A DNA stretch of 64,000 nucleotides from Desulfurococcaceae archaeon. GTDB taxonomy: Archaea; Thermoproteota; Thermoprotei_A; Sulfolobales; Desulfurococcaceae. Location: the NCBI GenBank assembly GCA_038823915.1, contig JAWBBY010000002.1, forward strand, positions 49,519 through 113,518, read 5' to 3'. The notes under the pieces were generated by a model. It was not told the DNA's origin. It worked only from the letters and a program-made list of their open reading frames with translations, and searched no databases. The position numbers were made by a program, and so were the translations under genes. Positions 41,249 to 50,027 of this stretch are shown here, one piece after another. Within the stretch, counting starts at the first letter, position 1. The number at the start of each line of letters is the position of its first letter.

Positions 41249-41271
41249 TAAGATACCGATTATATCTACAG

Positions 41272-41916
41272 CTAATATTTTATTCTAAAAAGGTGTTTAA
41301 AACTATTGTTTACAAACGCATTATAACAGTAGGCAATCAGTATTTGAATCAAATAACCAAGTGTATAGAAAAATTTTGCCTTGGAAATGCCTGTTTTAGA
41401 ACTAGATGTTGCTAAGTGATAACTTAGTAGTAAGATGGCTAAGAAGAAGCCTATTATTGAAAATACTGTTGCAGGTATACTTAAGTAAATCAATGGTTTA
41501 CGTTCTTTCAAAACAATGTAGGTATAGTTGAATGAACCATTAACGTACTGGATATAGTATGAATTAATACCTATCGCGACGAACTTCTTCGTCATGATTT
41601 CGTTGAAGTCTAGTACTTGTGTTTCATTATGTAGATTATCAAGTATTACGATATTGCAACAACCCTGTATTAACAACTCTGTTGTATATACTGAGTAACT
41701 AGTAGTGTATTCTAAACCATTTGGAATAATTACTTCATTTGCAATACTCCCAGTCTCTCTATATACTTCTTCTCTAACTACGTAATTATCAATAATGAAT
41801 AGAAGAGTTAAATTGAATAACATAAATAATAACAGTATGATAAGTAATGAACGTGATTTCAATAAACCTTCTTTTATCAAACAGCCATCCCTAAAACATA
41901 ACTGTTGTTTTACCAA
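41272..41916 (-). CDS. Hypothetical membrane protein embedded in the Opp operon
   Basis: 214 aa with an N-terminal TM, a soluble segment of about 110 aa containing sequons, and C-terminal TM helices. TTG start. No family recognised. Confidence 0.45.
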   Translation of the reverse strand: MVKQQLCFRDGCLIKEGLLKSRSLLIILLLFMLFNLTLLFIIDNYVVREEVYRETGSIANEVIIPNGLEYTTSYSVYTTELLIQGCCNIVILDNLHNETQVLDFNEIMTKKFVAIGINSYYIQYVNGSFNYTYIVLKERKPLIYLSIPATVFSIIGFFLAILLLSYHLATSSSKTGISKAKFFYTLGYLIQILIAYCYNAFVNNSFKHLFRIKY

Positions 41917-44118: not shown

Positions 44119-45159
44119 TTGTATTGTTTTAAGAAAATTGGAATTGTTTATGGTAGGAGACCATTATACTTAATTAAAATACCCTTGATCTACACATATA
44201 TTGGTTTCGGCGTAATCGATAGGGGAACCAATGTTCTTCAAATTAGACCCACTACGCTCTGTCCACTCAACTGTATATTCTGCAGTGTTGATGCCGGTCC
44301 CTTCAGTAGGAATAGAGTTGCCGAATTCATTATTGATAAAAACTCAATATTAGAGACCGTTAGGGAAATTGCTTCTTATAAAAACACGAGTATTGAAGCA
44401 TTAATTGATACTATAGGCGAGGGATTAACCTATCCATATATTTTCGAATTAATCCAGGAACTTAAGAAAATACCATATGTAAAAACCGTTGCTTTAGAAA
44501 CACATGGTTTACAACTAACTAGGGAGACAATTATTAAATTATGGGAGAATGGTTTGGATCGTGTTAATTTAAGTATAGAAACATTCAATGTTGAGAAAGC
44601 TAAACTATTACAGGGTGTTCCATGGTACAATCCTTTAAGAGTTAAAGATTCTGCTGAATTCCTTGTGAAGGAGACGGATATCGATCTACATGTAACGCCT
44701 GTTTGGTTACCTGGGCTTAACGACGATGACCTTGTGGAAATCGTTGAATGGGCTTACAGAATAGGTGCTGGTAAGAAATGGCCTCCTGTAACGATACAGA
44801 AATTCATACTACATAGATTCGGCAGAGCTCCAAATTCGATTAAACGAATAAATTGGAAGGATTTTTGGAAATGGTTGGAGAATTTCGAGGCAAAAACTGG
44901 ATATAGAGTTTCGTGGAGTATGGAGGAATGGGGTATGTATAGAGCTCCACGTATAAAATGCCCATACAGTCCTGGAGACATAGTCGGTTTAGAAATTGTT
45001 TCAACAGGTGTTTTTAAATGGGAGTTTCTCGGAGTTACGTTAGATAAGAATATAGTTGTTTGTGTACGTGATAGGGTTAAAATTGGTGGGAAATATTTCG
45101 TTAAGATAACGGATACGAGAGATTGTTTAATTAAAGCAAGAGTTGTTGGAGAAGTTTAA
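44119..45159 (+). CDS. Radical SAM protein (archaeal COG2100-like) with a C-terminal OB/TRAM-like tail
   Basis: CPLNCIFCSV CxxxCxxC motif near the N-terminus, followed by TIM-barrel-like GGE-type blocks (IGEGLTYP). Confidence 0.7.
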   Translation: MYCFKKIGIVYGRRPLYLIKIPLIYTYIGFGVIDRGTNVLQIRPTTLCPLNCIFCSVDAGPFSRNRVAEFIIDKNSILETVREIASYKNTSIEALIDTIGEGLTYPYIFELIQELKKIPYVKTVALETHGLQLTRETIIKLWENGLDRVNLSIETFNVEKAKLLQGVPWYNPLRVKDSAEFLVKETDIDLHVTPVWLPGLNDDDLVEIVEWAYRIGAGKKWPPVTIQKFILHRFGRAPNSIKRINWKDFWKWLENFEAKTGYRVSWSMEEWGMYRAPRIKCPYSPGDIVGLEIVSTGVFKWEFLGVTLDKNIVVCVRDRVKIGGKYFVKITDTRDCLIKARVVGEV

Positions 45160-45221: not shown

Positions 45222-46139
45222 CTACAATCCACAAGCATTTATAGCTAAATCTATGTTGCCGAATTCCAATACTGCTACAGTATCTCCACATACTTCAAAA
45301 AATGAAATCTCGAATCCTTCGCCGAAATCGTTTTTCTTATCCATAAGAACCTCCTTATCCAAACCTCCAGAGCCTCCAATAGTTATCCACGATACTACTC
45401 TTGCTTCTTCAATAATTCCATGTTTCTTAATAATTGGGGATAGATACGTTTCTCTACTTAAAGTTACAGCTGTACCTGGATGATATGCTCCACTAGCTGG
45501 AAGAACGAGTATTTCATTACCAAATTCAGATGGAATAATTAGTATCGATGGTAACTTATATATTCCGAAACATCTCAATCTAGGATGTTCGTGACCCATA
45601 ATGATTAAATCGTAATCTTCAATAACGGTATCTAGATGCCCATGCGTAAACAATATTTTGCTACCACCAGATTCTATAACGTATTCTCTAGTTAGCTTCA
45701 AACCATAATTTTTAAGAACAGGGATTAAGAAGTTATCGTGATTACCTCTAACCAACACTATGTCTTCAACACCACGTGAGAATAGGAATTCGATTAATCT
45801 AGAAACCTCCACTCTCTCTTGTCTTAGTAATCTATCAAAAGCATGTTTAACATCACCATTTATGAGAATACGTTTAGTTTTAACAATATTCAGTAATTTA
45901 TCAAGCATTGAAATAACATTTCTAAACTGTATTTTAGGAATAAACATCCCCACTGTACTTGAAGTGCTTTTAGAATCGTAGTATAAGCCTCTAGCAACTG
46001 CTTCTTCAAAACCTAAATGTAAATCCGATAATACGATTAGATCCTCGTGTGGTAGATAAACTACTGGATAACCAGGAATCGCGACAACGTTCTCCCTTAA
46101 CTTACCTAAACTAATTTTCTTAAACATATTGATAACCAT
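45222..46139 (-). CDS. Calcineurin-like metallophosphoesterase (SbcD/Mre11-related archaeal type)
   Basis: Motifs LSDLHLG, NGDVKH, RGNHD and GHEHP in canonical order. There is an alternative start at ATG 46127. Confidence 0.7.
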   Translation of the reverse strand: MVINMFKKISLGKLRENVVAIPGYPVVYLPHEDLIVLSDLHLGFEEAVARGLYYDSKSTSSTVGMFIPKIQFRNVISMLDKLLNIVKTKRILINGDVKHAFDRLLRQERVEVSRLIEFLFSRGVEDIVLVRGNHDNFLIPVLKNYGLKLTREYVIESGGSKILFTHGHLDTVIEDYDLIIMGHEHPRLRCFGIYKLPSILIIPSEFGNEILVLPASGAYHPGTAVTLSRETYLSPIIKKHGIIEEARVVSWITIGGSGGLDKEVLMDKKNDFGEGFEISFFEVCGDTVAVLEFGNIDLAINACGL

Positions 46140-46146
46140 GTAGAAG

Positions 46147-46211
46147 CGGGCCCGCCGGGATTTGAACCCGGGACCTACGGGTTAAGAGCATCGGCTAACC
46201 GACCGACCCCC
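46147..46211 (-). tRNA. 3' half of tRNA-Lys(CUU) (positions 31-73, 46189..46147) preceded by a 22-nt GC-rich leader (46211..46190); no 5' half present
   Basis: The minus strand reads GGGGGTCGGTCGGTTAGCCGAT-G-CTCTTAA-CCCGT-AGGTC-CCGGG-TTCAAAT-CCCGG-CGGGCCC-G. This gives an anticodon loop with CUU, the 3' anticodon stem, a 5-nt variable loop, a perfect T arm, the 3' acceptor strand and the discriminator. The upstream 22 nt cannot supply the acceptor 5' strand (GGGCCCG needed), a D arm of normal size, or the 5' anticodon stem (ACGGG needed, CGATG present). Confidence 0.7.
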
Positions 46212-49127: not shown

Positions 49128-50027
49128 ATCTTCTCTAACTCTTTTTACATTCACGATTACACCTAGATCACGGGGGGGTAGAAGAAGAATAGATTCGCTT
49201 ATATCATTAATTTCAACATAACCTAAAGCTTTCATTAAAGTAGTAGAGATAGAGCTTACTAAACTGTAATTAAATGATTTATCATCGAATGTGGATATAA
49301 TTTTAGCCTCGAACTCCCTCTTCAGAGGCAAGTATTTAAGCATTACATATGAAGATATAATAACATTCCTATAATTTAGCTCGTGAAGCGAATCGTGTAT
49401 GAATGGGAAATCACCATCTGCTACGTAAACTGTTGAGTAAGACTTCGATGTAGCACTAATTGATTCATAAATTTCTAAACCAAGTCTTTTAACGCTTCTC
49501 GGCGGATTTTCACAAACTATAACTGGTTCTTCTCTTCCAGTTTTCTTAAGTACCAACGCTACCGCTATACCAATAATGTTGCATCCCAACACTATAGAAG
49601 GATCTTCTCCCAACTCCACTAAATTTATAGCATGCGAAACGTATGGAATGATCGCGTGAAACGGCTTAGGTTGATTAATGAATCCCCATATATTCTCTGG
49701 AGGTATTGATGCAAAATGAGTTAACAAACCATTCCTCTCTAAACCGATTAAACCATGTCTACTGAATGGTTTTACTATAACAAGTTTCCCGGATAGATCC
49801 CCTCTTCTTCCAGAAGGATCTTCAATAACCTTAGCTACACCTGATGAACCAGGAATAACTGGTTTCTTGGGAAAATACGTATTGCTAAAGAGTTTCTTTT
49901 CGAGAAAACCTAAATATATGAATAGTGGTTTACAGATCATTGAATTAGGTTCGGCTAACGTAAATTCTTCTTCAATAACGTTGATATTCTCCGATACTAG
50001 AACATACTTATTCCTCAAAATAACCAC
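49095..50027 (-). CDS. Hypothetical protein, weakly medium-chain dehydrogenase/reductase-like
   Basis: 310 aa with a GroES-like N-part (PGSSGVAKVIE) and a degenerate Rossmann segment (VLGCNIIGIAVALVLKKTG). No zinc ligands recognised. It overlaps the aminotransferase end convergently. Confidence 0.4.
   Translation of the reverse strand: MVILRNKYVLVSENINVIEEEFTLAEPNSMICKPLFIYLGFLEKKLFSNTYFPKKPVIPGSSGVAKVIEDPSGRRGDLSGKLVIVKPFSRHGLIGLERNGLLTHFASIPPENIWGFINQPKPFHAIIPYVSHAINLVELGEDPSIVLGCNIIGIAVALVLKKTGREEPVIVCENPPRSVKRLGLEIYESISATSKSYSTVYVADGDFPFIHDSLHELNYRNVIISSYVMLKYLPLKREFEAKIISTFDDKSFNYSLVSSISTTLMKALGYVEINDISESILLLPPRDLGVIVNVKRVREDSSSGFSNKHI

Follow-up and report, generated by a model that had tools for sequence, protein, structure and literature searches.

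How can a transfer RNA (tRNA) gene consist of a 3' half alone, without any 5' half in its vicinity? This question is raised by a 65-nt element located in a stretch of 64,000 nt (hereafter the window) from a Desulfurococcaceae archaeon (assembly GCA_038823915.1, contig JAWBBY010000002.1, positions 49,519 to 113,518 of the forward strand). On the minus strand, from window position 46211 to 46147, a 22-nt leader, GGGGGTCGGTCGGTTAGCCGAT, precedes a 43-nt tRNA segment, GCTCTTAACCCGTAGGTCCCGGGTTCAAATCCCGGCGGGCCCG, corresponding to tRNA positions 31-73 with the anticodon CUU. In assemblies carrying the same locus, we identified a 5' half whose trailer is complementary to this leader. [quoted passage not shown] Its host is not a Staphylothermus and belongs to DTBP01 (GTDB), an uncultured genus of Desulfurococcaceae from the Tengchong hot springs.

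The 3' half and its leader

The preliminary description of this locus had recognised a flawless 3' portion of tRNA-Lys(CUU) starting at position 31, within a unit of about 65 nt with a G+C-rich leader and a TATA-like sequence about 30 nt upstream, and had proposed a stand-alone half of a trans-spliced tRNA. The minus strand bears out these features, and the 5' half presented below supports the proposal. Positions 46189 to 46147 read, in order, G, CTCTTAA, CCCGT, AGGTC, CCGGG, TTCAAAT, CCCGG, CGGGCCC and G, with all stems and loops of the 31-73 segment intact. The segment starts at the known intron and split site 30/31, and it is identical (43/43) to the 3' part of an intact tRNA-Lys(CUU) gene of Thermogladius sp. 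4427co. The leader (46211..46190) has 15 G+C out of 22 nt, and the CCA end is not encoded after the 3' exon (46147..46189). The parts of the locus, named according to the bulge-helix-bulge (BHB) junction discussed in the next section, are as follows:

46147..46189, minus strand: 3' exon of the probable split tRNA-Lys(CUU), with G31, anticodon loop CUCUUAA, 3' anticodon stem, 5-nt variable loop, T arm, 3' acceptor strand and discriminator G73
46190..46191, minus strand: leader positions -2 and -1 (A, U), forming with G31 the 3-nt bulge that carries the 3' cut site AU|G (BHB geometry check)
46192..46195, minus strand: leader positions -6 to -3 (GCCG), which make up one side of the central helix H (4 bp), the other side being tRNA positions 25-28 (CGGC) of the 5' half
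46196..46211, minus strand: leader positions -22 to -7 (GGGGGUCGGUCGGUUA), one strand of the outer helix h', whose partner is the 5'-half trailer UAACCGAACCGACCCCU, encoded elsewhere in the genome
46240..46247, minus strand: TATA-like box TTTATTAA, a candidate archaeal promoter matching TTTAWAWA at 7/8 positions, with its centre 32 nt upstream of the leader
45222..46139, minus strand: metallophosphoesterase gene (from the list of open reading frames, ORFs; Pfam Metallophos in the identical loci of other genomes), a context marker outside the RNA

In the window, the 43-mer and the 22-nt leader are each found once with up to 3 mismatches allowed (0 expected from shuffles), and the element is the highest G+C island of the 64 kb (0.70 vs. 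a background of ~0.35). ARAGORN detected no tRNA gene in the window and Rfam none at its gathering score, while permissive Rfam thresholds only returned the T arm and a weak mascRNA-like match. This match (mascRNA-menRNA, window 46148-46210, minus strand; 23.3 bits vs. a gathering score of 42.5, E = 0.026) would correspond to a cis tRNA-like fold combining the T arm with 6/7 chance pairs between GGGGUCG and CGGGCCC. We rejected this fold because the GGGGUCG/CGGGCCC pairing, assessed by eye, fails for the Staphylothermus leaders. It may be the same type of artefact as the tRNA-Leu(CAA) that tRNAscan-SE called, with a low score, on the S. marinus half (PMC3218864). Standard tRNA finders miss the split gene entirely, so tRNA-Lys(CUU) will seem absent from these metagenome-assembled genomes (MAGs).

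The distant 5' half and the predicted helix joining the halves

As the preliminary description had reported, no 5' half beginning with GGGCCCG is present in the 64-kb window. This motif is confined to the element itself, and scans tolerating wobble pairs or 1 mismatch revealed nothing tRNA-like, over the 46 kb on one side of the element and the 17.8 kb on the other. Apart from the opposite strand of the leader itself, the only complement of the leader of at least 9 nt in the window is a chance 9-mer at 49951, and among all window 20-mers none outside the locus pairs with the leader at an energy better than -23.1. Two candidate positions were rejected. By synteny with S. marinus, the 5' half would lie ~4.78 kb downstream, near window 41,433 on the minus strand; this position is inside an ORF (41272..41916), and the adjacent spacer of 23 nt (41249-41271) is too small. 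A decayed 5' half at ~41,250-41,330, suggested by the stretches TAGCTGTAGA and ATAATCGG and by a flank resembling the upstream region of locus L008, was dropped because blastn and tblastx comparisons of loci L007-L009 with the window show no similarity there; it is a chance A+T-rich resemblance.

We scanned a genome collection with a pattern derived from canonical BHB geometry, in which GCCG pairs with positions 25-28, the bulges are GG|N and AU|G, and the trailer pairs with the leader upstream of -6, assuming an uninterrupted wobble-tolerant helix between leader and trailer. True 5' halves were found in Staphylothermus-like MAGs (L007-L009), one of which (L008) carries both halves on its contig with 3.6 kb between them. 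DTBP01, S. marinus and S. hellenicus escaped this pattern, a single base being inserted or deleted in their trailers. Scanning metagenomes for the conserved 5' exon with any base but G after it yielded 120 loci. At one of them (L133), located between a DUF2070 gene and a TBP gene, the trailer T-TAACCGAACCGACCC is a near-exact complement of the window leader. Using the TBP of this locus as an anchor (P0121, 99% identical, 'Desulfurococcaceae archaeon'), the partner 5' half, GGGCCCGTAGCTCAGCCCGGTAGAGCGGCGG|U-UAACCGAACCGACCCC (as DNA, GGGCCCGTAGCTCAGCCCGGTAGAGCGGCGG|TTAACCGAACCGACCCC), was found between the DUF2070 and TBP genes in ten assemblies.

The link between the two halves comes from genomes of the same species. 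The ABC-ATPase of the window has identical counterparts in several NCBI MAGs (L001-L006), whose intergenic region bearing the element is also identical to that of the window. The accessions of these MAGs lie within the range deposited by a study of the Tengchong hot springs (PMC11094006), the supplement of which lists JAWBJC as Desulfurococcaceae genus DTBP01 (1.12 Mb, 23 contigs, 96% complete, 36.2% G+C). In GCA_038832995.1, the 3' half is on JAWBJC010000001.1 (L006) and the 5' half on JAWBJC010000002.1 (L137); in GCA_038897995.1, they are on contig 2 (L004) and contig 4 (L138), respectively. The halves are at least ~107 kb apart (~73 + 33) in GCA_038832995.1, a distance that presumes correct binning and a single copy of each half.

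In the window species, leader and trailer form an outer helix of 16 bp with one bulged A (-28.8 kcal/mol), an energy reached by 0 of 2000 shuffled trailers (z = -4.6). Co-folding the 3'-half unit with the 5' half gives a dimer of -76.2 kcal/mol (ddG of -30.9 at 37 C and -21.5 at 85 C), in which the acceptor stem (7 bp) and the leader-trailer helix both form in trans, as they do in the five other lineages compared below. A canonical hBHBh' (helix-bulge-helix-bulge-helix) is available at the junction in 6/6 lineages, with h made of A21-G24 and C32-U35 (4/4 pairs) and H of C25-C28 and GCCG (4/4 pairs, GCCG being invariant in all six lineages). The bulges, of 3 nt each, read GG|U and AU|G in the window species; the second is AG|G or AA|G in the remaining lineages and in cis introns. 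If each bulge is cut behind its second base, the cut sites coincide exactly with the exon ends, position 30 and G31. The BHB predicted at the 30/31 junction in the preliminary description can form between the two halves. The same description had the leader pair with a distant trailer, which holds for positions -22 to -7 and not for the remainder, GCCG (-6 to -3) pairing with tRNA positions 25-28 and AU (-2, -1) being bulged. It had also expected ACGG(G) as the 5' anticodon-stem strand, while the actual strand is GCGG(G), with a G27-U43 wobble. When the exons are joined, ARAGORN calls a tRNA-Lys(ctt) of 74 nt with a clean cloverleaf that includes this wobble, whereas each half alone remains uncalled.

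A pathway from the two genes to a functional tRNA can be proposed. The 3'-half unit of ~65 nt would be transcribed from its own promoter, and the 5'-half gene between DUF2070 and TBP would yield tRNA positions 1-30 with a trailer of ~17 nt. TATA-like octamers (6-7/8 matches) are found 26-32 nt upstream of the leader in the six lineages, and such boxes also precede the 5' halves, in DNA of 65% A+T. The two precursors (5' exon followed by UUAACCGAACCGACCCC, and GGGGGUCGGUCGGUUAGCCGAU followed by the 3' exon) would anneal through the 16-bp leader-trailer helix and the 7-bp acceptor stem, as the in silico pairing suggests, and the junction would fold into the hBHBh' with its bulges GG|U and AU|G. 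Given established archaeal tRNA splicing and the split tRNAs of Nanoarchaeum and Caldivirga, the crenarchaeal splicing endonuclease, expected to be heterotetrameric (alpha2beta2) in Crenarchaeota (PMC3218864), would then cut each bulge behind its second base, which sets the exon ends at position 30 and G31. An RNA ligase, likewise expected in Crenarchaeota, would seal these ends into the mature junction ...GCCCGGTAGAGCGGCGG|GCTCTTAACCCG (DTBP01-specific, GCTCAGCCCGGTAGAGCGGCGG|GCTCTTAACCCGTAGG), and the product would be a normal tRNA-Lys(CUU) of 74 nt.

Several points weigh against a working split tRNA in DTBP01. The 5' half was seen in MAGs of the same species, off the window, and its linkage to the 3' half is a matter of binning in two assemblies. 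The unconstrained minimum free energy co-fold gives a 2x2 internal loop at the junction, and the BHB, though fully compatible, was imposed. The candidate promoter boxes resemble a consensus in A+T-rich DNA, which is consistent with promoters and does not prove them. Transcription from separate promoters, endonuclease cleavage, ligation and a function in translation are all inferred here; in 2011, reverse transcription PCR and northern blots were performed on Aeropyrum pernix and not on Staphylothermus (PMC3218864). Finally, no intact tRNA-Lys(CUU) was found in the 64-kb window or in the MAG loci read (about 12-21 kb each), which represent a part of the DTBP01 genome.

One orthologous split in six lineages

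We compared matched leader/trailer pairs from six lineages, i.e. DTBP01 (the window), S. marinus (L151), S. hellenicus (L011), Staphylothermus sp. AUK105 (L008), GCA_053939965 (L013 and L147) and Desulfurococcales ex4484_58 (L015 and L149), by means of per-lineage duplexes and a 6x6 cross-matrix. We abandoned a count of consensus pairs on the six joined constructs aligned with MAFFT, since lineage-specific bulges shift the outer helix out of register and one structure line for all would miscount. The published G-U vs. G-C difference is recovered in the pairs of S. marinus and S. hellenicus, which validates the approach. In the matrix, the best partner of each trailer is its own leader, or an identical or near-identical Staphylothermus leader, and the window trailer pairs with foreign leaders at -14.2 kcal/mol or weaker, vs. 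-28.8 kcal/mol with its own. In comparison with AUK105, the window leader has changed at six positions of the outer helix, each facing a complementary trailer base, and the outer helix of GCA_053939965 displays a double change from C-G to U-A. The 3' exon is identical (43/43) in the six lineages, whereas the neighbouring phosphoesterase is only ~50% identical (49% between DTBP01 and S. hellenicus); TBP shares 68-69% identity between DTBP01 and Staphylothermus. The 5' exon shows a single base change, in the D loop and in DTBP01 alone.

These comparisons bear on the possibility that the half genes are real and yet redundant or decaying, the work being done by an intact tRNA-Lys(CUU) elsewhere in the genome or by a wobble-reading tRNA-Lys(UUU). 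The limited part of the DTBP01 genome covered by the search for an intact gene leaves some room for such a relic, as does the MAG table, where 37 tRNAs are given for a 96%-complete genome (PMC11094006) and the tRNA set is not fully accounted for. Mutations would be expected in a relic, yet the 3' exon is invariant next to proteins that have diverged by half, leader and trailer have changed together with the 16-bp helix kept, and the split gene is the sole tRNA-Lys(CUU) of S. marinus (PMC3218864). Because of these frozen exons and compensatory changes, a redundant or decaying pair is improbable.

The position of the two halves is also conserved. In all lineages, the 3' half lies immediately upstream of the phosphoesterase gene (L008, L011, L013, L015 and L151, besides the window) and the 5' half between TBP and DUF2070. 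A tRNA fragment could in principle mark the border of an integrated virus or plasmid, as a remnant of an attachment (att) site; partial tRNAs are known in Desulfurococcales (e.g. six in A. pernix, Table S3, PMC3218864), and the fragment starts close to a position often used by integrases. The preliminary description had itself pointed to a duplicated copy bordering an integrated element, or to an intact tRNA-Lys(CUU) gene elsewhere combined with the lack of any locus complementary to the leader, as findings against a split tRNA. A leader-complementary locus is present, the 43-mer is single-copy in the 64 kb, the Pfam list shows no integrase or mobile-element gene among the neighbours, the syntenic site is identical in six lineages, and the 22 nt upstream are under pairing constraint with a distant locus. 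For these reasons, an att remnant can be practically excluded.

Contigs that carry both halves have the 3' half upstream of the 5' half, on one strand, at a distance of 4.8 kb in S. marinus (L151) and S. hellenicus (L011), 3.6 kb in L008, 13.1 kb in L013 + L147 and 16.1 kb in L015 + L149. This order is that of permuted tRNA genes, which could suggest that the element is an exon of a cis-spliced or circularly permuted gene, with a single precursor containing the 5' half. In DTBP01, however, each half has a contig of its own (with a distance of at least ~107 kb in GCA_038832995.1), the 3.6-16 kb separating them in the relatives contain protein genes on both strands, and each half has its own TATA-like box. 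The location of the halves on separate contigs makes a single transcript hardly conceivable, and a split tRNA-Lys(CUU) transcribed as two RNAs is the preferred interpretation.

A further lineage carries a stand-alone 5' half (L134, 3110-3140, plus strand) with the trailer ATACCGGCCGGTCTCCCC. It lies between ORFs of 194 and 585 aa, whose size and orientation match TBP and DUF2070 of S. hellenicus, on a contig without a 3' half.

Known split tRNAs and the origin of the split

Split tRNA genes are rare, and they are debated with regard to the origin of tRNAs and introns and to splitting as a shield from integrating elements. [quoted passage not shown] The preliminary description rightly mentioned, for Staphylothermus, a tRNA-Lys(CUU) that is trans-spliced: Chan, Cozen & Lowe described it in 2011 in S. 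marinus and S. hellenicus (Genome Biol 12:R38, PMC3218864). In these species, the halves are joined at 30/31, with precursor and mature lengths of ~65 and 43 nt for the 3' half and ~48 and 31 nt for the 5' half. They are encoded 4.78 kb apart on the same strand, and their canonical hBHBh' is followed by a perfect 13-nt trans helix (PMC3218864). The element could thus be called a known rarity in the sense that it is an orthologue of the published case; being in another genus, it is not the published case itself.

The DTBP01 gene shares with Staphylothermus the 30/31 junction, a 3' half of 22 + 43 nt, the 3' exon (43/43), the 5' exon (30/31 identical), the BHB core (H = CGGC/GCCG, bulge GG|N) and the genes flanking both halves. 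The two differ in their hosts (a terrestrial genus vs. marine Staphylothermus), in the outer helix (16 bp and a bulged A vs. 2 bp, an A-A mismatch and 13 bp), in the 3' bulge (AU|G vs. AG|G) and at one D-loop base. Moreover, separate contigs carry the two halves of DTBP01, with at least ~100 kb between them vs. 4.78 kb in Staphylothermus, although closeness is not a defining feature of the published cases. The N. equitans tRNA-Lys(CUU), also split, has the same isoacceptor, 30/31 junction and canonical BHB (PMC3218864), and its halves are also dispersed; this archaeon is, however, of a distant lineage with several split tRNAs per genome, and its mature tRNA differs from that of Staphylothermus at 7 positions (PMC3218864). 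[quoted passage not shown]

In the full-text literature, whose coverage was partial so that absence is unproven, we found no later report of a split tRNA-Lys outside Staphylothermus. The DTBP01 gene involves no new mechanism. What is new since 2011 is a terrestrial lineage distinct at the genus level together with several more MAG lineages, halves that are dispersed rather than 'relatively close', and a comparative series with covariation support for the trans helix. An observation in two species becomes a series of at least six lineages with one orthologous split, in which the exons are frozen, leader and trailer co-vary and the spacing of the halves ranges from 3.6 kb to >100 kb, with unsplit Thermogladius as an outgroup and many relatives with a cis intron. 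Such a series permits tests of the age of the split, its mode of origin and the helix length needed.

Two kinds of unsplit genes are relevant to the origin of the split. Thermogladius sp. 4427co has the same mature sequence in a single uninterrupted gene, intact and intron-less (Rfam tRNA, 72.8 bits), that is located 105 nt away from the orthologous phosphoesterase gene, which is on the other strand; the joined halves differ from it at 0/74 positions for the Staphylothermus type and 1/74 for the window species (the D-loop base). The DUF2070-TBP spacer of Thermogladius and Desulfurococcus contains no tRNA piece. In addition, 78 of the 120 metagenome loci are cis-spliced tRNA-Lys(CUU) genes with an intron of 13-34 nt at exactly 30/31 (43 distinct introns). 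The first intron base is A in 72/78 of these genes, and the 3' end reads G-Y-Y-G-A-G|G. They have the same 5' exon, central helix and bulges as the split gene, but their outer helix is closed by a loop, which makes one gene and one transcript. Since central helix and bulges are shared, the split gene looks, from these sequences, like a 30/31-intron gene opened in its outer helix.

A plain insertion of DNA into the intron would place the 5' half upstream of the 3' half, i.e. in the reverse order. The constant 3'-before-5' order thus fits better with a duplication followed by reciprocal losses, which we infer in preference to an intron insertion. The intact gene of Thermogladius (L154, 5822-5896, minus strand) is divergent from the phosphoesterase gene, whereas the 3' half of the split clade is co-directional with it (window 46147-46211, minus strand). 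Therefore, an inversion or another ancestral orientation was also involved. In Thermogladius, a TnpB/Cas12f-like transposon-associated gene lies between the phosphoesterase and TBP regions (L152, 15918-17105, minus strand; L154, 11704-12885, plus strand), in the stretch lying between the two halves of the split lineages.

More broadly, the chances seem to us about even that the split is old, stably inherited and common to a multi-genus clade of Desulfurococcaceae (the Staphylothermus, DTBP01, ex4484_58, GCA_053939965 and L134 lineages), rather than the recent genus-level event proposed in 2011. The halves would then have drifted apart stepwise (3.6, 4.8, 13 and 16 kb, then at least 100 kb) while leader and trailer co-evolved, and their order would point to duplications followed by reciprocal losses, the origin proposed for permuted tRNA genes, rather than to an insertion into the 30/31 intron.

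Other genes of the metagenomes share the first 31 nt of this tRNA-Lys and are interrupted at 30/31. Some continue with the anticodon loop CTCCAGA (CCA, Trp), often with a further insertion, and others with CTTTTAA (Lys UUU); they are found at loci L023, L040, L042, L071, L072, L089, L090, L097, L099, L106, L107, L116 and L130. In these archaea, one 5' sequence is thus common to tRNAs of several identities. Hot-spring metagenomes also contain a second family of split-like 5' halves (L031, 284-315, plus strand; L041, 9266-9297, minus strand; L051, 679-710, plus strand; L081, 92-123, plus strand; L082, 1786-1817, plus strand), with an identical 5' exon of 31 nt followed by AGGAGCGGGTCCGCGGAGCAC and a T run. 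A T arm or 3' acceptor strand is lacking over 260 nt, and the contigs, of up to 12.9 kb, contain no 3' exon at all. Judging from its sequence, this family could be another split tRNA from a different lineage.

Regarding the neighbouring genes, the ATG of the metallophosphoesterase ORF starts 7 nt past the discriminator base, the MAG annotations picking an ATG 12 nt further on. This tight and co-directional arrangement with the 3' half is found in all split lineages, and the two may have a common promoter or transcript. In the window, a radical-SAM gene (346 aa; 44119-45159, plus strand) is downstream of the phosphoesterase gene and convergent with it, likewise in L013 and L015. In Staphylothermus, the radical-SAM gene (L008, 4145-5194, minus strand; L011, 8793-9821, plus strand) is found upstream of the 3' half, in the same orientation. 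A rearrangement, one breakpoint of which is beside the 3' half, separates these two gene orders.

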